29,280 nucleotides of DNA from a virus (IMGVR_UViG_3300045988_140557:1-29280); one strand, 5' to 3'; shown: positions 1,728 through 29,280, counted from the stretch's first letter. The notes: generated by a model from the sequence alone, not told the origin. Numbers and translations are program-made.

Positions 1728-1769
1728 TTTTACTAAAATATATCATTCTCATATTGAGTATCTAAACAC

Positions 1770-1794
1770 AAATAGGGAGATTTACTCCCTATTT
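1770..1794 (-). terminator. 10-bp stem / 5-nt loop hairpin (AAATAGGGAG attta CTCCCTATTT) directly beside repeat element A.
   Basis: Perfect inverted repeat with A/T-rich flanks. On the minus strand it is followed by TTTGTGTTT. Confidence 0.55.
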
Positions 1795-1797
1795 AAG

Positions 1798-1847
1798 TGT
1801 CAAGTTTTTTACTCACTTTTAGTAGTTAAAATAAATAAAAACTGACA
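1798..1847 (+). repeat. 50-nt intergenic element, copy A: TGTCAAGTTTTTTACTCACTTTTAGTAGTTAAAATAAATAAAAACTGACA.
   Basis: The first 18 nt are identical in copies A-D. The termini are inverted (TGTCA...TGACA). Confidence 0.85.
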
Positions 1848-1992
1848 TTTTAGTGTTTAGCTTTTCAAAGATCTATTTGCCTTTTTTCTTCTTTTCCTTT
1901 ATCAAGTAAGTAACAAATAATATTCAAGAACTCTTGAATCTGCATATCATATACTTGATGCCAATTTAACCTTGTTACTTCACTAACCCTGT

Positions 1993-2653: not shown

Positions 2654-3901
2654 CTATTTAATTTTAATATTATAATGTCCTTTGTTTGTATTTAATGAGT
2701 CATAGGCTAACATTAATGAAATTACTGTATCATCATTAAATCCAGATGGAGCATTATAACTAACATTTCCAGTTTTTGGATTATATGAAGCCTCATATAG
2801 TCTTAACTCATTTAAAAGTTTATCATCTTTTAATAATCCTATCTTTTCATTCTCCAAAGCAGCTTGAAGCTTATTAACTATATCTGCCTTACTCTTATTA
2901 GTAGTTAAGAATCGTATAATTCTGATTTTCGGATTCTTCCGAACTAACATATCATAGAAGACACTACCAATTGAGTTTTGTTCAACTTGTACAATCTTTA
3001 TAAATCCTTGATACTCAGTTAGTATATTTGTTAATAAATCAACTTGCTCTGTTGGAGTTTTATCGTTAAAATACTTTATAAAGACCATTTGCCCAGATTC
3101 ATTTAAAGCAGTAACACAAGTATAGTCTTTACCACTTCCAGTAGCTCAGTCTATTCCTATATAAAGACTCTGATAATCTGGTTTTTTCTCAATTATGCAA
3201 TTAGCTATATTATTAAATAAACAGCCATCATCATCTGCAAATTCCCCTAAGTATTCAGTTCTAAATTTATTTTTTGAGGTTGTAAGTCGATACATCTCTA
3301 ACTTCTCTTTATCTAAAAGCATAGATGTATCTTCTAAAGCCCAATCAAATGATTTATAGAACTTGTCATATTTTGGATCTAACCCTTTAGTAAAGCAGTC
3401 ATAAAAGAAACCCTCTCGGAACCTTGGAGTACTAATAATTAATATTGGAGCAGACCAAACATCAGCTATAGGAGTTAATATTTCAAATACTTCATCCGAT
3501 ATATATGCTGCTTCGTCTATTACTAATAATCCACTTACTGTAAATCCTCGTAATGAATCTTTTTGCTCTGCAGATTTAAATAGTATTTCACTCCCATTAG
3601 TAAACTCTATTTCTAACAATGACTCATTTTTCTTTTTAATAAGATCACATTCTCCAAGAGCTTTTATGATTTCCTTAAATATTTTTCTACTATTAGTTAA
3701 AGTGGGTTCTACTATACAACTAATACTGCCTGGATAATTTATAGAGAATCTTAATAATTCATTTTCTGCCATAAATGACTTTCCACATTGTCTTTTAGCT
3801 TTTACTGTAAATATTTTTCCAGATCTATAAGAGTCATTCATTGCAGTATGTACTTTGTACTGATAAATAAATGGCCTATATCCTTTATATATCCTTGTCA
3901 T
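2654..3901 (-). CDS. terL: Terminase large subunit (415 aa), made of fragments 3146..3901 and 2654..3088 joined through TGA 3146-3148.
   Basis: Walker A (KAKRQCGKS) and Walker B (LLVIDEAA) lie in the N-terminal fragment. Read-through gives GID-W-ATGSGKDYT, which starts an RNaseH-like nuclease domain in the same frame. There is no TAA/TAG in the 3089-3145 gap. TAG stop. Confidence 0.85.
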
Positions 3902-4337
3902 TTATAATGGGGTCTCCAAATTTAAATTGGCATTCATTATTTTGAATATTAACTTGAATTTCTGGTTGATTTAATCCAAACATAGAATTTATTGTTTTAA
4001 TAACTTCAGTAGCAGATCTTACATCATTTTTACTAACAGCAATATCCAATAATGTTTCCAATCTTGTTAATTGTATATGTCTTAAATTCTTTATAAGATT
4101 ATCGTTTTTATCTGCAATAATCTTATAAGCTTCCCTAATATATTTAGCAGCAGTAGTTTGTCCAACTCCATATTTAGTTTGAAGTTCTTCACTTACTTTA
4201 TTTCTAGATCATCCTTTATTAAATAATCTTGCTGCATAAAGATATTTAGTTTTTTGTTCGTCTATTTGATTCTCTTTTACCTCTTCCTTTCTTGGCCTCC
4301 CTGTTTTCTTCGGCAGCTCTTGATCCTTCACTTTCAT
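3885..4337 (-). CDS. terS: Terminase small subunit candidate (150 aa; one TGA at 4209-4211).
   Basis: Not in the ORF track because TGA splits it. Translation: MKVKDQELPKKTGRPRKEE...YLYAARLFNKG-W-SRNKVSEELQTKYGVGQTTAAKYIREAY. This is a basic N-terminus plus a helix-turn-helix. It ends 17 nt inside terL and overlaps the upstream ORF by 92 nt in another frame. Confidence 0.55.
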
Positions 4338-4581: not shown

Positions 4582-4670
4582 AATTAGCGCTTTTTAGTAT
4601 AAGTAAATATAGAAATTAACTTTCCATTCTTGTAGTGATAAATAACTTCTGTTTCCATAAAATATAATTT

Positions 4671-5239: not shown

Positions 5240-5531
5240 TTAATCAATCCTCCAATTCGTCATTTTGTTGTTCAAGTGGTTCTTTAACAATCTCATAATA
5301 TTTCTTATAAGTATAGTAATATCTACTTGTTTTACTAAACCAATAATTCTTAAATAATCTTGTAATCCAAAATTTCAATTCATTTTTGCTATCAAGCTGA
5401 TTTAATTTTGGATTTGATGTTTCCAGAAGGTCTAGTACACACATCTGGAAACAATCATCATCCATTCCAAATTTAAGTTTTAACTCTTGGCAGAAGTCAT
5501 AGTATTTGGTAATAATCTCATTATTTGTCAT
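5223..5531 (-). CDS. Sigma-70 region-2-like protein (95 aa to TGA 5244; 102 aa if TGA is read).
   Basis: DDDCFQMCVLDLL and ELKFWITRLFKNYWFSKTSR resemble the sigma r2.1-r2.4 pattern (xDxxQxxfl ... Wlxxixxnxxxdxxr). It sits directly upstream of the r4-like ORF. Confidence 0.4.
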
Positions 5532-5955
5532 TTGCTATATAGTTACTAAATTCTGTATTTACATCTATCTTGATGGCTTTCTTTAAAGACAACTCTGTTT
5601 TTAATGAATAGCCATAAGTTCCTCCAAAATCTGTTGTAGAACAACCATATTTCATAGAATCCTTTATAAAGGCTTGTTTTATATCTTTAAATATATATAC
5701 TCCATCATCAAATATTATTACTAATATAGAATTATTTCTTGATAGCATATCAAATTTATCCCTATTAATAATAGTGGTTGGATATTTATTAGAATTAAAT
5801 CTTCTCCTTTTAACTTCAATTATATAATCAATTCCATTCCAATTAAATGTTCCATCATATCTGGAATAATCATCTTTACATCATTCTATATCTATATTAA
5901 ATTTCTCTTTAAATAGATTCTTTGTAAAGACTAAGCTTCTTATATCTGTTTTCAT
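5521..5955 (-). CDS. PD-(D/E)xK-like nuclease candidate (144 aa; TGA at 5881-5883).
   Basis: Extending the track ORF 5521..5748 upstream through TGA gives MKTDIRSLVF...IE-W-CKDDYSRYDGTFNWNGIDYIIEVKRRRF..., a D...E-x-K arrangement. The start has a TAATG overlap with the upstream gene. Confidence 0.4.
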
Positions 5956-6194
5956 TATTTTATATTATTAATTTTAAGTGTTAAATCACAATATTCTTCA
6001 TATAAATTAGATACTTCTTCACTTGCTGGATTAACCCACATTACTGAATCTAATTTATGTTTTAATTCTGCTCTTTCTAATCTTAATTCAAATGTTTTAT
6101 GTTGTCTTTCCTGATAGACTTCATTTACTCTAAAACCTGCAATAATTGAAGATGCAATTAAAAGGCCAACTAAAATTTTATTTATTTTTTTCAT
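5955..6194 (-). CDS. Small N-terminally anchored membrane/secreted protein (79 aa). It is the first gene of the minus-strand block.
   Basis: Intact ORF with the hydrophobic N-terminus MKKINKILVGLLIASSIIAGF. Confidence 0.5.
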   Translation of the reverse strand: MKKINKILVGLLIASSIIAGFRVNEVYQERQHKTFELRLERAELKHKLDSVMWVNPASEEVSNLYEEYCDLTLKINNIK

Positions 6195-6239: not shown

Positions 6240-6271
6240 CAAAGATAATACATTTTTATTCAATTTCCAAA
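6240..6271 (-). promoter_or_regulatory. Promoter for the minus-strand block: TTTG-N20-TATCTTTG.
   Basis: On the minus strand, TTTG is at 6271-6268 and TATCTTTG at 6247-6240, about 45 nt upstream of ATG 6194. It fits the Bacteroidota -33/-7 consensus. It also fits a generic TTGnnn-N17-TATnTT promoter. Confidence 0.55.
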
Positions 6272-6347: not shown

Positions 6348-6833
6348 ATGATTTACATAATTAAATTAACTAAAACGAATTTTATTAAAGTTGGTTACAC
6401 CACTAATATAAGTGGTAGACTAACTGCTTATAAAAACACTATTCCAAATGAAATGATAGAATTTTTTATAGCAAAAGAAGGAACTAGAGATGATGAAAAT
6501 TATTATAGAGATAAATATAGAGCATATAAAACTAAGAGTAATTCAGAATGGTTAAAACTTCCAGATGAATTAATTGTAGAGCTATTATCAGATTTTAAGA
6601 GTGCAAATAATATAAAAATAAATAAACAAAGTAAAAAAGAGTGATATAATGAGAATATAGATAAATTAGTAGAATTGTGTTTATCTGGAGTATCATTAAA
6701 TAGAGCTGCAATTCAATTAAACGCACTAAATTGAGATTGAATAAAATATGCTAATCAAAGATATGAAAAAGAGAATGGTAAAAAATTAACAAAACTTTGG
6801 GTAAGAAAAATAAAGAAAAGTTTTGCAGAATAA
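6348..6833 (+). CDS. T5orf172 (GIY-YIG-superfamily)-like domain fused to a C-terminal HTH (161 aa). The fusion requires reading TGAs at 6642, 6732 and 6738.
   Basis: The N-terminus, IYIIKL..IKVGYTTNISGRLTAY...SEWLKL, fits the T5orf172 pattern. After TGA 6642 the same frame stays open to TAA 6831 and reads NENIDKLVELCLSGVSLNRAAIQLNALN-W-D-W-IKYANQRYEKENGKKLTKLWVRKIKK. Confidence 0.6.
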
Positions 6834-6852
6834 AAATTTATTATTATATTTG
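6822..6852 (+). promoter_or_regulatory. Promoter candidate: TTTG-N19-TATATTTG.
   Basis: TTTG at 6822-6825 and TATATTTG at 6845-6852. It overlaps the end of the T5orf172-HTH gene. Confidence 0.45.
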
Positions 6853-6900
6853 TAGTGTAAAGAAAAAAAATAATTTTTATTAAAAATAATACCTAAATTA

Positions 6901-6932
6901 TTTGGAAGTATAAAAATAATGTTGTATCTTTG
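6901..6932 (+). promoter_or_regulatory. Promoter candidate: TTTG-N20-TATCTTTG.
   Basis: TTTG at 6901-6904 and TATCTTTG at 6925-6932. The -7 box and the following GTAGTA are shared with the 6240 promoter. Confidence 0.5.
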
Positions 6933-6960
6933 TAGTATGAAACTAAAACTAATAATTCTA

Positions 6961-6986
6961 GGCAGGTGAAAATCCTGCCACTTTTT
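6961..6986 (+). terminator. Intrinsic-terminator-like hairpin, GGCAGG tgaaaat CCTGCC followed by ACTTTTT.
   Basis: 6-bp GC stem, 7-nt loop and a T-run. It lies about 30 nt downstream of the 6925 promoter box and 10 nt upstream of element B. Confidence 0.55.
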
Positions 6987-6995
6987 GAATCTTAC

Positions 6996-7045
6996 TGTCA
7001 AGTTTTTTACTCAAATTTAGTAGTAAGAAAATAAAAATATTGACA
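6996..7045 (+). repeat. 50-nt intergenic element, copy B: TGTCAAGTTTTTTACTCAAATTTAGTAGTAAGAAAATAAAAATATTGACA.
   Basis: It carries the 18-nt invariant core and the TGTCA...TGACA termini. Confidence 0.85.
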
Positions 7046-7075
7046 AAAACTTTAACTATTTAAATTATTAAAATT

Positions 7076-8797
7076 ATGAAAACATATTTAAACAATTTGA
7101 TTAATGAGTTGCCAACTAACTGTTTATTTGATAAAGGAAAAGTTGGATGTGGAGGAACTTCAATGGCAATTGAATGTAATAAGCCTTATGTTATTTGTGT
7201 TCCATTTACTAGCTTAGTTGAAAATAAACTTCAACAATATCCAAATGAAAGACGTACTGAGAAGATATTTGGAGTTTATGCTGGAGTTACTATTAAAGAG
7301 ATTAAAGATTACGTAGATAGTGTTAAATGCCCTAAAATTATTGTTACATATAACTCACTTCCAAAAGTTATTTCTGCAGTTAATACTAAAGAATATAGTT
7401 TATTAGTAGATGAATATCATATACTATTTAATCAGTATAGCTTTAGAAAGGATGCTATTAAACCTGTTTTAGAGAACTATAAATTATTTAAAGATTTTAC
7501 ATTTATGACTGCTACTCCTCTTGAAGAAGAGTTTGTATTAGATGAATTAAAAGATTTAGAATTAGTAAAACAAGAATGGGATGATGTTATTGAAACTAAG
7601 GTACAAGCTGTTAAATGTAAGAATGTTGAAGCTTCAACTATTAAATTAATTAATGCTGTTCTTAATAATCAAGTAGAAGGTAATGTTTATATATTTGTAA
7701 ATTCTGTAGACTTTATAAAGAATCTTATTCAGAAAGCTAAACTTACAGAAGAGAATACAAGAGTTATATACTCCAAAAACAATAAAACCAAATTATCAAT
7801 TCACAATTCTACAGTATTAGATGAACCTAAGAAAATAAATTTATTAACTTCTACAGTATTTGAAGGTTCTGATATTTATGATGAAAATGGAAGAATTGTA
7901 GTAGTAAGTGATGCTCAAAAAGCACAAACTCTTCTTGACATCTCAACTTCTATTCAACAGATTGCTGGTAGAATTAGAAATAGTAAATATTTAAACTGGA
8001 TAACTCATCTTTACTCAGCAACAAGATATGCAGATATTAGTTATGAAGACTTTAAAAAGAAGAATATCCAGAATATTGAGGAAACTAAGATTGCTGTAGA
8101 TGCTTACAATGCAATGCCTGAAGTTGCAAGAAAGAAACTTAAGGAATTTACATCCGATACTTATATCCAAGTAAATGATGATTTTACATTTACATTTGAT
8201 CCAAATATGGCTAAGGTAGATATTTTTAACTTTAAAGTGACAAGAGGTTTATATTCTATTAGAACAAATCTTAATAAAGAGTATATAAAGAATGGATTTA
8301 AAAAAGTAGTAGAATGTGAAGACAACTCTATTAAGATTGATTTTGAATCTGATAATAAACCATTTAAAGAACTAATTAAAGAAGTTAGAGCAGAATGGGA
8401 AAATAAATTTAAATTGAATACTCCACTCTTAAATGATGCTATTATTAAATATCCTTGGCTGCCAGAAGCTATTAGTAAATTAGGATTCGAAAAGATGGCA
8501 AGTTTAAAATATTGCATTTCTGATATTAAAGATGCTCTATTAAAGAAATCAAATAAAAGTGCAGATAACAAAGCAGCTAAGAAGTTAAATCAATCAATTA
8601 CTCTTGGAATGTGGTATTCTAACGCTGATATTAAAAAGTTTGTTAAAGAAGCTTATGAAATTAGTGATATTACTATTACTCCAAAAGCAACAGAAATTGA
8701 TAAATATTATGAAGTTAAAAAATGCCAGAAAAGAGTAAATGGTAAACAAACTGAAGGTTATGTAATTATTAATAAAAAGTTTGTATTTAATAAATAA
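7076..8797 (+). CDS. Superfamily-2 helicase (573 aa), the likely replication/recombination protein.
   Basis: Motif I-like GKVGCGGTS, motif II LLVDEYH (DExH), motif III MTATP and motif VI QQIAGRIRN. Intact under any code, with 5 TGG and 0 TGA. Confidence 0.6.
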   Translation: MKTYLNNLINELPTNCLFDKGKVGCGGTSMAIECNKPYVICVPFTSLVENKLQQYPNERRTEKIFGVYAGVTIKEIKDYVDSVKCPKIIVTYNSLPKVISAVNTKEYSLLVDEYHILFNQYSFRKDAIKPVLENYKLFKDFTFMTATPLEEEFVLDELKDLELVKQEWDDVIETKVQAVKCKNVEASTIKLINAVLNNQVEGNVYIFVNSVDFIKNLIQKAKLTEENTRVIYSKNNKTKLSIHNSTVLDEPKKINLLTSTVFEGSDIYDENGRIVVVSDAQKAQTLLDISTSIQQIAGRIRNSKYLNWITHLYSATRYADISYEDFKKKNIQNIEETKIAVDAYNAMPEVARKKLKEFTSDTYIQVNDDFTFTFDPNMAKVDIFNFKVTRGLYSIRTNLNKEYIKNGFKKVVECEDNSIKIDFESDNKPFKELIKEVRAEWENKFKLNTPLLNDAIIKYPWLPEAISKLGFEKMASLKYCISDIKDALLKKSNKSADNKAAKKLNQSITLGMWYSNADIKKFVKEAYEISDITITPKATEIDKYYEVKKCQKRVNGKQTEGYVIINKKFVFNK

Positions 8798-8811
8798 AAA
8801 TATTATATTTG
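8780..8811 (+). promoter_or_regulatory. Promoter candidate: TTTG-N20-TATATTTG, ending 5 nt before ATG 8816.
   Basis: TTTG at 8780-8783 and TATATTTG at 8804-8811. The mRNA would have a very short leader or none. Confidence 0.45.
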
Positions 8812-8815
8812 TGAT

Positions 8816-9094
8816 ATGGAAGGCGATATTAAAGAAACAATTAAACAAACAGAAGAGTATATTAAAGAATTGGATAAATGAATACTTGAGTGTAAAGAAG
8901 CTACTAAAAGATTTGGAGATATTATAGACAAAGTATTAAAAGATAAAGATTATTTATTTCTAAATTTGATTAATTATGGATGATTTATTAAAAAAGCTTG
9001 AAGAACTGGAATACATAATAGTTCAATTAAACGAACTGAAGGGAGGTTTAGTTTGGGAAGAAGTAGAAGAAATGCCAAAACCAGAAATTACTAA
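8816..9094 (+). CDS. Small ORF with an uncertain end: 21 aa under table 11, 55 aa if TGA 8981 terminates, 92 aa under strict table 4.
   Basis: MEGDIKETIKQTEEYIKELDK-TGA-ILECKEATKRFGDIIDKVLKDKDYLFLNLINYG-TGA-... The part beyond 8981 overlaps the next ORF out of frame and looks non-coding (rich in R/S). Confidence 0.3.
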
Positions 9095-9113
9095 TGCAAC
9101 ATATACTGATTAA
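8976..9113 (+). CDS. Small acidic coiled-coil ORF (45 aa).
   Basis: MDDLLKKLEELEYIIVQLNELKGGLVWEEVEEMPKPEITNATYTD. TAA stop. The start lies in an ATGGATGA overlap with the previous ORF. Confidence 0.4.
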   Translation: MDDLLKKLEELEYIIVQLNELKGGLVWEEVEEMPKPEITNATYTD

Positions 9114-9114
9114 T

Positions 9115-9258
9115 ATGAAATACCAAACCTATAAAGTATGCATAAATGGAGTGTATTATGTATATGTAATACCAGAAAATAGTAGGTTTTTAGTGGACTT
9201 ACAAACAGGAGATTTAATACCTAAAGAAGATGATAAATTATTTGAAATGATGGAATAA
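9115..9258 (+). CDS. Small ORF (47 aa).
   Basis: MKYQTYKVCINGVYYVYVIPENSRFLVDLQTGDLIPKEDDKLFEMME. TAA stop, followed by a terminator. Confidence 0.35.
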   Translation: MKYQTYKVCINGVYYVYVIPENSRFLVDLQTGDLIPKEDDKLFEMME

Positions 9259-9262
9259 ATGA

Positions 9263-9290
9263 AAATAGGAGGGTTTATGCCCTCCTATTT
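9263..9290. terminator. Bidirectional terminator hairpin at the convergence of the plus and minus blocks.
   Basis: 11-bp stem AAATAGGAGGG / CCCTCCTATTT with a 6-nt loop and A/T runs on both sides. The HNH stop codon lies inside it. Confidence 0.7.
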
Positions 9291-9608
9291 CTGTTTAAAT
9301 CTTTGATAATTACTAACCGATGAATGAATAGCTTTATGACAAACTGAACATAATGTTATTAAATCTTCCAAATGTTCCTGCTCATTATATAAATTCTCAT
9401 ACGTCTTATGATGTACCGATAAAGACCTATTTCCGCCTTCCTGAACGCATCAATTACAAGTTTGGCAGTGGTAGTTATCCCGCAATAATATTTGCTCTCT
9501 AATGGCCTTAAAATCCTTTGATCTTATATATCTTTGGTACTTTAAATATTCTTCACTTCTTACTTTCTTCTTTGTCTTATGAAGCAGTTTACTTGATTTG
9601 GAGTCCAT
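9285..9608 (-). CDS. HNH endonuclease (107 aa; TGA at 9450-9452).
   Basis: Absent from the track. Translation: ...NYHCQTCN-W-CVQEGGNRSLSVHHKTYENLYNEQEHLEDLITLCSVCHKAIH. This gives CxxC ... HH ... CxxCH. TAG stop. Confidence 0.8.
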
Positions 9609-13453: not shown

Positions 13454-13482
13454 TTTTACATAGTTTTACATTACTTTTACAT
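13454..13482 (-). repeat. Three tandem ATGTAAAA repeats (10-11 nt period) abutting start codon 13452.
   Basis: Plus-strand TTTTACAT occurs at 13454-61, 13464-71 and 13475-82. Confidence 0.8.
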
Positions 13483-13527
13483 ATCTTTTTCTTAAAATAT
13501 AAACCAATTTACTAATGTATTAAAATA

Positions 13528-13555
13528 ATTAAAGGAGACCTAAGCCTCCTTTAAT
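13528..13555 (-). terminator. Hairpin ATTAAAGGAG / CTCCTTTAAT (8-nt loop) abutting element C.
   Basis: 10-bp inverted repeat. On the minus strand it is followed by a T-rich tract. Confidence 0.5.
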
Positions 13556-13604
13556 GTCAAGTTTTTTACTCACTCAAAGTACTAAGAAAAAATAAAAACT
13601 GACA
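13555..13604 (+). repeat. 50-nt intergenic element, copy C: TGTCAAGTTTTTTACTCACTCAAAGTACTAAGAAAAAATAAAAACTGACA.
   Basis: It carries the 18-nt invariant core. It starts 1 nt after the stop (13606) of the LRR paralogue on its right. Confidence 0.85.
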
Positions 13605-13605
13605 A

Positions 13606-14592
13606 TTAGTTTGAACTTGCTAAAGTTCAGTTTTTAGATGCAGCTAATGATTTCTGTTCCTCAGTAAGTGCATTATAAACGTTAGTATAAAAAGTTAAAG
13701 TTTTGGTATCCTTTCCAGTTAAATCACTAACATTTGTAATAATATCAGTTACTGATTGACTATTTAGTACTCTAAAATTTGCTAAATTCATACTTTTATC
13801 AGCTCCTTCAACACCCCCAAAATAAGTTACAACACTACTAGCTGTACCACAAAGTGCTGTTTTATTAAGATCTTGGTATAAAGAACAATTTGTTAATTTT
13901 ATTTTACCTACAGATGTGATATTAGATGAATATGAGCTAAAATACTGAGTAAAAGTTACTTGCCCATTTATAACTTCAATTTCAGGGACACTAATAGGAA
14001 CAGCAGAATCAGTAGTTACTTGATTAAAAAAATATTCTAATGCACATACACTAGTTTCATACTTATTTGTTATTGTTATATTTTTTGGAAAAGATGAGGA
14101 TAAATAAAATGTGCGCGTACAATATCCTCAACTAGCGGATTGAGGATTAATAAATTCTAGAGTATCAATACTGCCTGCAAAACTAGAAAATGTATATGAA
14201 CGTTCGGCCTGCAGTTTTATCTCATTAATATGTATATTACTAGCATATTGAAATGTTCTTTCCGCAGCATATAATATATCTGGATTAATATGATCAGATA
14301 TATCAATAGGATCTTGAAATGAAGCCATATGAAATCAATAATTACAATCTTGTGGAATTTCATATTCAACGTTATCATAATGATCTTTATCCATTTTAGA
14401 ATTTGAAAATGTTAATCCATAATCATTTAAATTAATCTTTCCTCCACCTCCAGAAATCTGTCCTATCTTATCTGCATAGCTTCTAAAGGTATCTGAATCT
14501 GATACAGCAACACCTTTAGCTACAATAGCATCTTTAATGGCACTCTTAGTACCTTCAAGATACGTTAATTTATCAGAAATTGTATTTGCCAT
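13606..14592 (-). CDS. Receptor-binding-type protein, LRR paralogue 3 (328 aa; TGAs at 14335, 14128 and 13627).
   Basis: Fragments 14335..14592 and 14128..14328 plus the untracked 13606..14127 share one frame, which I verified line by line. The C-terminus ...VYNALTEEQKSLAASKN-W-TLASSN is paralogous to the other two. Confidence 0.6.
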
Positions 14593-19527: not shown

Positions 19528-19580
19528 ATTATTTTTCTATAAAATATAAATTATTCATTATGTGGTATATAAACAAAATA

Positions 19581-19608
19581 AGGGGCAAGTAAATTAATAC
19601 TCGCCCCT
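19581..19608 (-). terminator. Rho-independent terminator after the capsid-tube operon.
   Basis: On the minus strand, GGGGCGAGT ... ACTTGCCCC (one mismatch) is followed by TTATTTTGTTT. It lies 11 nt after the stop of 19619..20143. Confidence 0.65.
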
Positions 19609-19618
19609 CTTTCTGTTA

Positions 19619-22316: not shown

Positions 22317-22395
22317 TTTTTATTAATATATAAGCTATTTTAAAAATGTAATATTGTTACAATCTTTTATTTTTATATATTTATATATTATCAAA

Positions 22396-22444
22396 TGTCA
22401 AGTTTTTTACTCACTTTTGTATCTAAGATAAATAAATTTTGACA
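22396..22444 (+). repeat. Intergenic element, copy D (49 nt): TGTCAAGTTTTTTACTCACTTTTGTATCTAAGATAAATAAATTTTGACA.
   Basis: It carries the 18-nt invariant core and the TGTCA...TGACA termini. Confidence 0.85.
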
Positions 22445-22495
22445 TAGCACTACTATATAAGCACTGATAATCAGCAACTTACATAGTAGTATGTC
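22441..22495. repeat. Long imperfect hairpin bridging element D and the partial copy E.
   Basis: GACATA(gca)CTACTAT pairs with ATAGTAGTATGTC, giving 6+7 bp with a 3-nt bulge. The 26-nt loop contains its own CTGA/TCAG mini-stem. Confidence 0.7.
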
Positions 22496-22513
22496 AGAAA
22501 TTTTACTCACTTT
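22492..22513 (+). repeat. Partial element copy E (TGTCAGAAATTTTACTCACTTT) overlapping the tape-measure stop codon.
   Basis: 18 of 22 nt match the 5' end of the element consensus. Confidence 0.7.
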
Positions 22514-28292: not shown

Positions 28293-29280
28293 TTATTTAC
28301 GATAAGTATCTTGAGAAGCTTCTACATTAATTGTATAATAGAACTTGTTTTTACCTTGATTAGTATAAGTTTTATATTCACAATTTGTATCTGTAATTAA
28401 TACTGGAGTGATAGTATTATCTTTAAGATTATGCAAATATACTTTAGTACTCTCAATTAAATTAAACATCTTAAAAGCTTGAATATCATTTAAATAACCA
28501 GTATAAAGAATCCAGCTTGAAGTTATAGTATTTAAATACTTATTCCTTGCAAATTCTTGAGATGTATTTAATACTTTGCGAGTATATGTTTCAGATTTAA
28601 TTTCATCAGTCTTTCTAACATTACCCTCAACAAGTAATGAATCCCATCCTCCTGCTGAATTAGTATAATATAACACATAATCTTTACCTGTGGTATCTAT
28701 ATCATATCTAATCTGTCTATCACTAATATTTCCGTCTTCTACAAATCCTACTATTAAATAGCTCCCACAAGGCCATAGTTTATTGCTTAAATCTTCTGTA
28801 TATGTATATCCATTAATTCCAGAATTTAAACTAATATCTATAGCAGTTGATGTTCCATCTACATAAAAAAATCTATTAACAACTCCCGTTCCAGTTGGTA
28901 AAATTCAACTTGCTACTAAATATTGTCTTGGATCAACTAAACCAGTAATAGGATCACTTAACATAGTACCTTTAGTCAAATCTCTATCTTTATAACTCCA
29001 GTCATTGAAGAAAGTAATTGGTTTTTCATTTCCACTAGATGTTATCAAAGTAAATGGTTTCAAATATTCTGGAGATATTATAGTTTTTGAAGTATTAAAT
29101 ATAATCCCATTAGATAGATAATTTTCAGCAACATTATTTAATAAAAACTCTACTCTATCAGTTTCAGGATATTTATAAGCTTTTCCAGCATAGACCATAT
29201 CCCCTGCATAATCTAAATGATATTCAATAAAATCTGAACTAATAATCTCATTCCAAACATAATCTTTTCAAATTGGAGAT
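28293..29280 (-). CDS. C-terminal part of the 725-aa tail/baseplate-type protein that starts at 1245 (positions 29226-29280 duplicate 1-55).
   Basis: Fragments 28905..29198 and 28293..28676 share one frame. They are joined through TGA 28905 and an open 28677-28904 stretch. TAA stop at 28293. Confidence 0.7.
29226..29280. repeat. Second copy of the 55-nt terminal overlap (duplicates positions 1..55).
   Basis: Exact identity to 1..55. Confidence 0.9.

Follow-up and report, generated by a model that had tools for sequence, protein, structure and literature searches.

A repeated AU-rich palindrome beside terminators in a TGA-recoded phage genome resembles bacterial extragenic palindromes

We identified a repeated intergenic palindrome in the 29,280-nt window (the whole stretch of DNA that was analysed), which looks like a new phage counterpart of bacterial extragenic palindromes and not like a phage-specific promoter. 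The reading that we put forward, tentatively, is that the element may be an extragenic palindromic boundary hairpin which lies beside terminators and is replaced as a discrete unit. In this proposal, the variable T-rich 5′ arm and the sequence-constrained A-rich 3′ arm would fold into an AU-rich hairpin in the transcribed spacer, where it would directly follow the final stop codon of a module and abut the base of a GC-rich intrinsic terminator; the hairpin may then be an added barrier or a cleavage site (a target of a double-strand-specific RNase, or a block to a 3′ exonuclease), and the fates of the upstream and downstream messages would thereby be separated. The next module would be re-started from a TTTA-N19-21-TATATTTTA box after the terminator, not from the element; the unit itself behaves as a discrete cassette that is exchanged, and at site A inverted, while the flanking sequence stays otherwise the same. 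We infer that the element may act at the RNA level, in the processing or stability of messages. Its cassette-like exchange is a side property.

Bases 1-55 of the window are repeated at 29226-29280 (repeat finder), which makes the window a complete circular assembly, 29,225 bp long. Under the standard genetic code, which we rejected, the large genes are broken; with TGA read as sense, the fragments merge into ORFs of 1147, 777 and 695 aa, in-frame TGA codons (38 in all) are found in early and late genes alike, and no gene stops at TGA. A tRNA scan of the genome found no tRNA genes. All genes lie on the minus strand except those in 6348-9258, so transcription would run one way around almost the whole circle. 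We infer a Bacteroidota host from the TTTG-N20-TAnnTTTG early promoters, the absence of Shine-Dalgarno sequences ahead of genes, and the Bacteroidota-type integrases (Arm-DNA-bind_5) found in more distant relatives; a Mollicutes or other code-4 host was set aside, since these same features point to Bacteroidota. There is no DNA match and no cultured relative among the GenBank phages, where the best TerL match is 29% identical. The phage family is an uncultured, gut-type, TGA-recoded one, and homing-endonuclease genes have been gained and lost across its genomes.

The 18-mer TGTCAAGTTTTTTACTCA, which forms the core of the element, occurs in four exact copies (1798-1815, 6996-7013, 13555-13572, and 22396-22413), all on the plus strand; allowing up to three mismatches adds no further match in the genome, and none of 100 dinucleotide shuffles contained four matches (mean 0.07). 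Four exact cores on one strand are thus far above chance. A fifth, degenerate core with four mismatches reads from 22509 to 22492 on the minus strand, and the repeat finder returned families of 63, 41, and 30 nt at the coordinates expected for the copies; the copies given in the preliminary description are confirmed. Read on the minus strand, each copy consists of a TGTCA(A/G) end, a T-rich arm, a TAC(T)...(A)GTA loop, and the core TGAGTAAAAAACTTGACA; the T-rich arm on the 5′ side is variable, and the A-rich arm on the 3′ side is TGAGTAAAAA(A)-x-TTGACA. The terminal TGTCA...TGACA repeats and the inner TAC(T)-N7-(A)GTA reported earlier are present, and A and T tracts lie in phase within the copies. 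Copies A and C and the degenerate core at site D start 1 to 3 nt past a stop codon (Table 1). Copy B shares the absolute orientation of the other copies, yet its surrounding genes are on the plus strand; it carries the ATT allele, so that 7019-7012 reads TAAATTTG, a perfect match to the -7 box. At site D, CTTG-N19-TATATAAA (box at 22379-22372) mimics the -33/-7 geometry of the host. Each major operon of this genome has a copy of the element upstream of it, in the direction of the genes.

Table 1. Positions of the element copies, hairpins, and candidate promoters in the window.
Feature	Position	Strand	Description
Element copy A	1796-1849	-	TGTCAG, T-rich arm, TACT..AGTA loop, core TGAGTAAAAAACTTGACA from 1815 to 1798; starts 3 nt past the stop of a conserved unannotated reading frame
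Element copy B	6994-7047	-	core from 7013 to 6996; in the 5′ leader of the helicase gene (7076-8797)
Element copy C	13553-13606	-	core from 13572 to 13555; begins 1 nt past the stop of g13606
Element copy D	22394-22446	-	core from 22413 to 22396; no GC hairpin after it
Degenerate core	22492-22509	-	TGAGTAAAATTTCTGACA; 2 nt after the tape-measure stop codon
Nested hairpin	22449-22490	-	ACTACTAT...CTGA-TTA-TCAG...ATAGTAGT; between the degenerate core and copy D
GC hairpin A	1770-1794	-	AAATAGGGAG-TAAAT-CTCCCTATTT, then GTGTTT; terminator-like, 3 nt past the core
GC hairpin B	6961-6986	+	GGCAGG-TGAAAAT-CCTGCC, T-run ACTTTTTG; called as a plus-strand terminator; terminator or attenuator
GC hairpin C	13528-13554	-	TTAAAGGAGGC-TTAG-GTCTCCTTTAA with a T-rich tail; minus-strand terminator by terminator scan
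Terminator hairpin without element	19580-19609	-	head/receptor-binding boundary; TATATTTT box after it at 19541-19548
Terminator hairpin without element	9262-9291		between the convergent minus-strand late genes and plus-strand helicase operon
Box A	1735-1742	-	TATATTTT, -7-like box with the ATG (1727) 7 nt downstream and TTTA 20 nt upstream; candidate module promoter
Box C	13494-13501	-	TATATTTT, after terminator C; TTTA 19 nt upstream
Tandem promoters P1 and P2	6822-6932	+	Bacteroidota-type, upstream of hairpin B and the helicase gene; P1, TTTG (6822)-N19-TATATTTG (6845-6852); P2, TTTG (6901)-N20-TATCTTTG (6925-6932)
Early promoter	6240-6271	-	canonical Bacteroidota-type, TTTG-N20-TATCTTTG with A6 ahead; predicted to drive the operon starting at 6194, which holds g5223 and g4994

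The GC hairpins that had been described beside three of the copies (1770-1794, 6961-6979, and 13528-13554) are present, so that three of the four element sites (A, B, and C) adjoin a GC terminator hairpin. At copies A and C the gap between core and hairpin is 2-3 nt, and a T-rich tail follows the hairpin. The terminator calls are on the minus strand for hairpin C and for those at 19580 and 9262, and on the plus strand for hairpin B. The loop of hairpin A is flipped in the relative L120; the changes seen in hairpin C among relatives (G.U to A-U and back) are compatible with a minus-strand RNA only. The element itself is an AU-rich hairpin with no T-run after it and does not have the form of an intrinsic terminator, which the adjacent GC hairpins do have. 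Hairpin B lies about 28 nt downstream of the -7 box of P2 and has its T-run on the plus strand, so copy B is locally downstream of a terminator, in the helicase leader; this disagrees with the earlier proposal that copy B fires antisense into the early genes, and a copy that lies past its terminator and antisense to local transcription also counts against the boundary hairpin. The further claim that the element marks every module boundary was too strong, as the terminators at 19580-19609 and 9262-9291 lack it; the first of these shows that the element is not needed at a boundary.

A separate motif, TTATATTTTA, was found after these terminators. Its TATATTTT form occurs seven times on the minus strand, four of them in intergenic DNA (only about 4% of the genome), where the boxes follow terminators A, C, and 19580 and precede g4246 and the terminase genes; at site D, TTATATATTA is found 7 nt before the ATG. 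At A, C, and 19580 a TTTA lies 19-21 nt upstream of the box, inside the T-tail of the terminator, and similar boxes are present in relatives that lack the element. Judging from position, the module promoters are probably the TTATATTTTA boxes that follow the terminators, rather than the element. Ahead of the 6194 operon the sequence reads AAAAAATTTG-N20-TATCTTTG.

The 50-nt copies are predicted to fold more stably than their shuffled versions (z of -3.6, -2.4, -1.95, and -2.55, and up to -5.5 when the neighbouring hairpin is included). Each single copy is predicted to form an AU-rich hairpin of roughly 14-20 bp, and at site D the degenerate core is predicted to pair with the left arm of copy D, which together with the nested hairpin gives a stem of about 35 bp (-40 kcal/mol, z -5.4). 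The element strand is the more stable one in 33 of 36 variants (mean -11.8 kcal/mol, vs. -7.8 for the complement), because the stems use G.U pairs; the inverted copies at site A have a weaker sense-RNA hairpin (about -8.6 vs. -12.6 kcal/mol), which counts against the boundary hairpin. The ends of the element fall into three classes, TGTCA(A/G)/CTTGACA, TGTAACT/(G/A)GTTACA, and TGTCTAT/GTAGACA, which co-vary as a stem, with a few uncompensated intermediates. In the arm alignment, 86.5% of the cells can pair (78.1% when shuffled), and the covariation score is 0.193 (0.055 when shuffled, and at most 0.068 in slid controls); none of 500 shuffles reached either observed value, with the left-arm register picked by best pairing, which favours the result somewhat. 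Four pairs have changed on both sides in this register-fixed alignment. RNAalifold found no consensus structure in the raw MAFFT alignment, in which the arms are misaligned. Template switching in quasi-palindromes could also produce matched double changes without selection. Besides the promoter, the preliminary description had offered a structured RNA, a processing site, a strand-specific DNA hairpin, or a regulator site as fallback roles; these stay candidates, and their hairpin part is now backed by the folding and the co-varying ends.

To place the element in its phage lineage, we searched IMG/VR with the exact core, which gave 59 loci, mostly contigs of about 30 kb, and defined clades by TerL and capsid searches. 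The loci overlap and most relatives come from one IMG/VR dataset identifier, so the counts given here are redundant; loci fetched by the exact core are also biased toward invariance, and those anchored on capsid, TerL, or g5223, which are free of this bias, agree with them. A profile search of all fetched loci (about 60 contigs) finds the element only at the same four syntenic sites (65 matches at D, 52 at C, about 17 at B, and, at A, about 15 in the sense orientation and 17 inverted). No copy is present in clades that fall to 62% or below in TerL identity or to 71% or below in capsid identity; in these distant clades, the genes at site A overlap (TAATG), and site D consists of a spacer of 60 nt. 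That these relatives manage without the element counts against the boundary hairpin.

Within the clade, spacer variability is highest in the left arm and loop and lowest in the core, which varies only in A5/A6 length, in its head (TGAGA/TTACA, in lineage L090), and in alternative right ends. The core is therefore invariant, as first described, in this genome, and among relatives it has A5/A6 length variants and alternative arm sequences. Orthologous resident copies keep the core while the rest diverges, implying selection on resident copies; since this 18-nt arm stays fixed while its pairing partner drifts, a purely structural role falls short. Similarly, the single orientation first described is true of this genome and not of its relatives: the type-2 unit at site A is always inverted relative to the genes, still between the stop codon and the terminator hairpin. 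For example, the site A flanks of L001 and L047 are nearly identical, with a few point substitutions between them, and the unit that they enclose is a sense type-1 in one and an inverted type-2 in the other; homology is lost exactly at the edges of the unit, the stop codon and the foot of the hairpin. No arm type occurs in both orientations at the same site. Arm classes, together with the AAG/ATT and A5/A6 alleles, recur across different sites, which requires some exchange among them. Contact with the GC hairpin at sites A, B, and C is kept in every variant and relative, even where the hairpin sequence is different; in relatives in which the helicase is replaced, copy B is missing and copy C is kept.

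Any model of the element must explain six facts: the stem with its matched changes, the fixed arm, the contact with terminators, the four sites, the tolerance of inversion and order, and dispensability. We rank the boundary hairpin first, as it would account for position, stem, terminator contact, and dispensability; inversion would be tolerated imperfectly, and the fixed arm is left with no reader.

The preliminary description took g5223 as a sigma region 2 protein and proposed the element as a late promoter for an encoded sigma-like pair, g5223 and g4994, and we found neither claim supported. For g5223 there is no match in Pfam or PHROGs, none in the PDB for the single sequence or for a 19-homologue profile, and none by Foldseek against the PDB (best E 4.6) for a confident AlphaFold model (pLDDT 85) made from a 97%-identical database homologue, so that neither sequence nor fold matches sigma. 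The partner g4994 is a small, early HTH protein that passes the HTH_50 cut-off and scores just under the Pfam cut-offs for Sigma70_r4 and Sigma70_r4_2 (25.4 bits for the latter, cut-off 25.7). In the element-less L085, L087, and L089 the pair has syntenic counterparts, small neighbouring genes of comparable size, one of which has an HTH Pfam match. Six lines of evidence thus run against a late promoter: the results for g5223 and for g4994, the presence of the pair in element-less clades, the inversions at site A, the stem covariation, and a host that is not of sigma-70 type; for a promoter read by a phage sigma in general, the lack of sigma similarity in g5223, the element-less clades with the pair, and the 17 inverted matches at site A led us to reject it. 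A sigma-70-type promoter (TTGACA-N16-18-TATAAT) was also rejected: after TTGACA, copies A-C have a hairpin and no -10, and only copy D has a TATATA, 16 nt past TTGACA. The TTGACA arm is not kept as a hexamer and changes to GTTACA or TAGACA together with the opposite arm; sigma-70-type matches in the genome are below shuffle expectation, and the host promoter type here is the Bacteroidota TTTG/TAnnTTTG.

A broader promoter reading, rather unlikely in our view, would have host sigma-A or a phage factor start transcription inside the core A-run, or would make the element a small-RNA gene. Copies A, B, and C would then each give an RNA of about 45-50 nt (the 3′ half of the core plus the terminator hairpin), as sibling small RNAs or an attenuated leader, and copy D the message of the head operon. 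Small RNAs usually have an invariant 5′ segment and then a variable terminator hairpin, the layout seen here, and the placement of the copies ahead of the major operons agrees with a promoter. In addition, ATT alleles read TAAATTTG-AGTA, like the TATCTTTG-TAGTA of the early promoters, and type-1 copies at D have A6-CTTG, 19-20 nt, and TATAT(A/T)3, copying the early A6-TTTG-N20-TAnnTTTG; spacer length is reported to be variable in Bacteroides promoters. However, the TAnnTTTG box is perfect only in ATT alleles (e.g., copy B at 7019-7012, with TTTG 24 nt upstream), other alleles reading AAGTG, GAGTG, or ATATG at this position, and the -7 position as a whole is highly variable (AAGT, ATTT, GAGT, GGGT, GTGT, ATAT). 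Type-2 copies at D have no -7-like box past the core, about half of the site A matches are inverted and point into the upstream gene, and stem covariation of the ends is not required by promoter function; the unsupported sigma-like pair, with its counterparts in element-less clades, and the below-chance count of sigma-70-type matches weigh on the same side. It is on orientation that a directional promoter fails.

The fixed, asymmetric 18 bp, kept at four sites and across relatives while neighbouring sequence drifts, could instead be bound as double-stranded DNA by a protein (from the phage, an HTH protein such as g4994; from the host, an architectural protein of the IHF/HU kind) and would then serve as an operator, roadblock, or bend, largely independent of orientation. 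The flips in orientation without loss of the core, the in-phase A/T tracts, which suggest bent DNA, and the presence of an early HTH protein agree with such a site. We nevertheless regard it as quite unlikely: no candidate phage protein tracks the element, as g4994 has counterparts in element-less clades, the T5orf172 gene is absent from some element-bearing genomes, and relatives without the helicase keep copy C. The covariation of the ends and the constant contact with the GC hairpin would be left unexplained, and on these two, stem and terminator contact, a plain protein operator fails.

The exchange seen at site A raises a reading in which the element is a selfish, REP- or MITE-like mini-palindrome that inserts at, or is copied into, terminator feet with little or no benefit to the phage. 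Its termini co-vary in three classes and so define sub-families; the classes and alleles common to different sites point to exchange; the unit has discrete boundaries and both orientations between the same flanks; presence differs among clades, with overlapping site A genes (TAATG) in distant relatives; site D holds a degenerate remnant; and homing-endonuclease genes come and go in these genomes. In a mosaic breakpoint scan (a crude window-BLAST profile), all four bins that contain an element rank in the top 8 of about 97; tail-fibre genes hold many of the other breaks. Against a selfish element stand the mere four fixed sites occupied across about 60 contigs, the absence of a transposase or RAYT-like gene among the proteins scanned and of a consistent target duplication, and the core kept in resident orthologous copies, which implies selection. 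Nor is any host genome multi-copy: among 185,579 species-representative genomes (GTDB), the 18-mer has 25 single, unrelated matches, about the number expected by chance. We consider this reading unlikely. A related reading, to which we give a low probability as well, is that these are a family of miniature palindromes of the phage's own, analogous to REP/RAYT or MITE systems: a phage or host enzyme would read the invariant arm, and copies would be made or flipped into terminator feet, rewiring boundaries, with a dual role in message processing.

A fourth alternative, very improbable, is a strand-specific single-stranded DNA hairpin signal in replication (a priming or initiation site, or a nickase site). 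It fits the 4.5 copies on one strand in this genome, the greater stability of the hairpin on one strand, and copy B, which adjoins the helicase gene and is not present in relatives with a replaced helicase. But many relatives have site A inverted, copy C is kept where the helicase is gone, the contact with terminators is left unexplained, and there is no primase or HUH-type nuclease among the proteins scanned.

Several narrower candidates were also rejected. Cruciform extrusion that would give a core/-7 promoter spacing does not fit the distances, and a RAT-like overlap of element and terminator arm does not apply, as the two hairpins are separate. A mini-ORF (MSVFIYFNY) in the element is not conserved in type-2 copies; an active invertible switch has no recombinase gene to be found and would conflict with the one orientation per arm type per site; and the likeness of TGTAAC...GTTACA to integron attC sites concerns one sub-type only, with no IntI. 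For a CRISPR-repeat mimic there was no match among the Rfam CRISPR-DR families, and the element is not known to resemble any CRISPR repeat type. Rfam 15 as a whole, including its CRISPR repeats, gave no gathering-threshold match and none at E ≤ 5 at any copy, and the sequences occur in none of the papers searched, in agreement with the earlier view that no element with this sequence has been described.

Among known systems, the promoter-early stem-loop (PeSL) cassettes of T4-type phages would be closest in idea, REP/BIME palindromes in form, and the RNase III sites of T7 in proposed mechanism; the element lacks a defining feature of each and was assigned to none. PeSLs are proven strong sigma-70 early promoters with terminators, which are present in dozens of copies in hyperplastic regions, flank dispensable ORFans, and mediate modular shuffling (Arbiol et al., 2010, PMC2839356; Comeau et al., 2014, PMC4122927). 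Like them, the spacer described here is a repeated composite intergenic motif that runs from a stop codon to the next ATG, has an AT-rich part, a promoter-like hexamer, and a terminator stem-loop with G.T pairs, and marks junctions where neighbouring genes of close relatives differ; here too a terminator stem-loop and then a promoter-like box follow the element, and the junctions coincide with mosaic breaks. In contrast to PeSLs, the element keeps to four fixed positions that separate essential modules, its host uses another promoter type, and its likeness to a promoter is read from sequence; what is conserved is an AU-rich palindrome in its own right, next to the terminator, for which PeSLs have no counterpart.

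The REPs of enterobacteria number hundreds of copies in a cellular genome, spread by RAYT transposases through recognition of a GTAG head; they have been linked with message 3′-end stability or attenuation, and sometimes adjoin IHF sites. REP/BIMEs and the element are both short imperfect palindromes with a conserved stem sequence, in transcribed spacers after stop codons and in either orientation. The differences are the 1-4.5 copies per phage genome, at four sites, with no copies found in host genomes; the many copies, RAYT, and 5′ GTAG of REPs were not found here, with no transposase-like protein among those scanned. MITE-type features are present in part (co-varying terminal repeats, both orientations), with no consistent duplication and with four sites only. 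The RNase III hairpins of T7 and lambda, of about 20 bp and with shared sequence, lie between cistrons at module boundaries and are dispensable; the element resembles them as a predicted hairpin between cistrons of long one-directional transcripts, at module boundaries and dispensable; its predicted stems are roughly 14-20 bp at single copies and about 35 bp at D. The sites of T7 are all transcript-sense and not fused to terminators, whereas the element flips and its cleavage is putative. In lambda nutR, boxA and a boxB hairpin lie between the cro stop codon and terminator tR1, and nut sites, which have a small conserved boxB loop and an N protein of their own, act in sense RNA only. The element is similar in its repeated arrangement of conserved sequence and hairpin between stop codon and terminator, but its orientation is unfixed, on which an N/nut-type RNA site fails, and the hairpin past the core is variable in sequence, as a plain terminator would be; we identified neither an N-like nor a Q-like gene in this phage. 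Sigma-ABfr promoters of Bacteroidota have a -33 TTTG and a -7 TAnnTTTG (Ryan et al., 2020, PMC7366714). The A6-CTTG of the core resembles the A6-TTTG of the -33 region of the phage early promoters, and ATT alleles make the TAAATTTG box, but the full -33/-7 pair at the usual spacing is found only in type-1 copies at D.

If the element is a functional boundary hairpin, it would show a small Bacteroidota-type phage splitting a 26-kb one-directional unit into separately controlled modules; to our knowledge, hardly any transcription signals of such phages have been mapped. Should it prove mobile, the element would be a rare REP- or MITE-like repeat kept inside a phage genome, and a handle on module exchange. 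The element, the TTATATTTTA box, and the host-type early promoters make up a testable transcription map for the uncultured, TGA-recoded family, and the sequence of the element is a clean lineage marker.

The window holds a complete phage genome, 29,225 bp long and either circular or terminally redundant; its two ends overlap with an identical 55 nt (1-55 and 29226-29280). TGA is a sense codon across all of it: 38 in-frame TGA codons are spread over early as well as late genes, and none of the genes uses TGA as a stop. No suppressor tRNA gene was found in the window, even though the promoters, which are of the Bacteroidota kind (TTTG-N19/20-TAnnTTTG), point to a Bacteroidota host with the standard code.

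Late operons are preceded by a recurrent box, TTATATTTTA, with a variant, TTATATATTA, at site D (see table). At copies A and C of the 50-nt palindromic element and at the 19580 boundary, where a terminator hairpin stands without an element, the box comes after the terminator and has TTTA 19-21 nt upstream; on the minus strand, four of the seven occurrences of TATATTTT are intergenic. Similar boxes are also present in L085 and L087, two related contigs that lack the element. We consider the box a candidate middle/late promoter or leader signal. Directly upstream of the g13060 ATG, ATGTAAAA is repeated at a spacing of 10-11 nt, which suggests a protein-binding array, since this spacing corresponds to helical phasing. 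Ahead of the helicase gene, the terminator hairpin starts ~28 nt past the -7 box of P2, the second of two host-type promoters there; with the hairpin lying between P2 and the gene, helicase expression would need read-through, and P2 would otherwise yield a tiny RNA of ~45 nt.

Features of the phage genome and of related contigs
Feature	Position	Strand	Remark
Conserved reading frame (...VSEVTRLNWHQVYDMQIQEFLNIICYLLDKGKEEKRQIDLWKAKH*)	1851-2008	minus	runs on in -1 frame beyond the g1993 stop codon
g3885, putative small terminase	3885-4337	minus	AT-hook-like KTGRPRK at start
g5521	5521-5955	minus	D...EVK motif
Box TTATATTTTA	1735-1742, 4659-4666, 13494-13501, 19541-19548	minus	recurs upstream of late operons
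Box variant TTATATATTA	22324-22333 (site D)		upstream of late operon
P2, canonical host-type promoter, then terminator hairpin	6901-6986	plus	ahead of helicase gene
ATGTAAAA, three copies	13455-13490	minus	upstream of g13060
Homing-endonuclease-type families	e.g. 6348-6833, 9285-9608		HNH_3/NUMOD4, GIY-YIG/NUMOD3, NUMOD1, T5orf172
GC-rich block, ~340 nt	L085 5520-5860; L086 7270-7610		between two duplicated early promoters

The reading frame that ends 3 nt ahead of element A is kept at the equivalent position in relatives of both the 59% and 62% TerL clades. Either a small gene overlapping g1993 or an extension of g1993 by programmed frameshifting may explain it. Pfam and PHROG searches gave no match for g3885 or g5521; the motif in the latter is suggestive of a PD-(D/E)xK nuclease.

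Free-standing homing-endonuclease-type genes differ in presence and intergenic position among close relatives (L188-L195, L090 and L104, compared with the window), and in L193 and L194 a 261-aa HNH/HTH protein takes the place of the helicase. In the 59% TerL clade, the early promoters flanking the GC-rich block are duplicated as a 62-nt repeat (84% identical). The block itself contains no called genes, and a search of Rfam at E<=0.1 gave no match; a novel structured RNA may be encoded here. One relative, L120, carries the loop of terminator hairpin A (1780-1784) flipped to its reverse complement, ATTTA versus TAAAT, with the stems unchanged. Like the inverted element at site A, it represents a palindrome-mediated inversion, here a small one.
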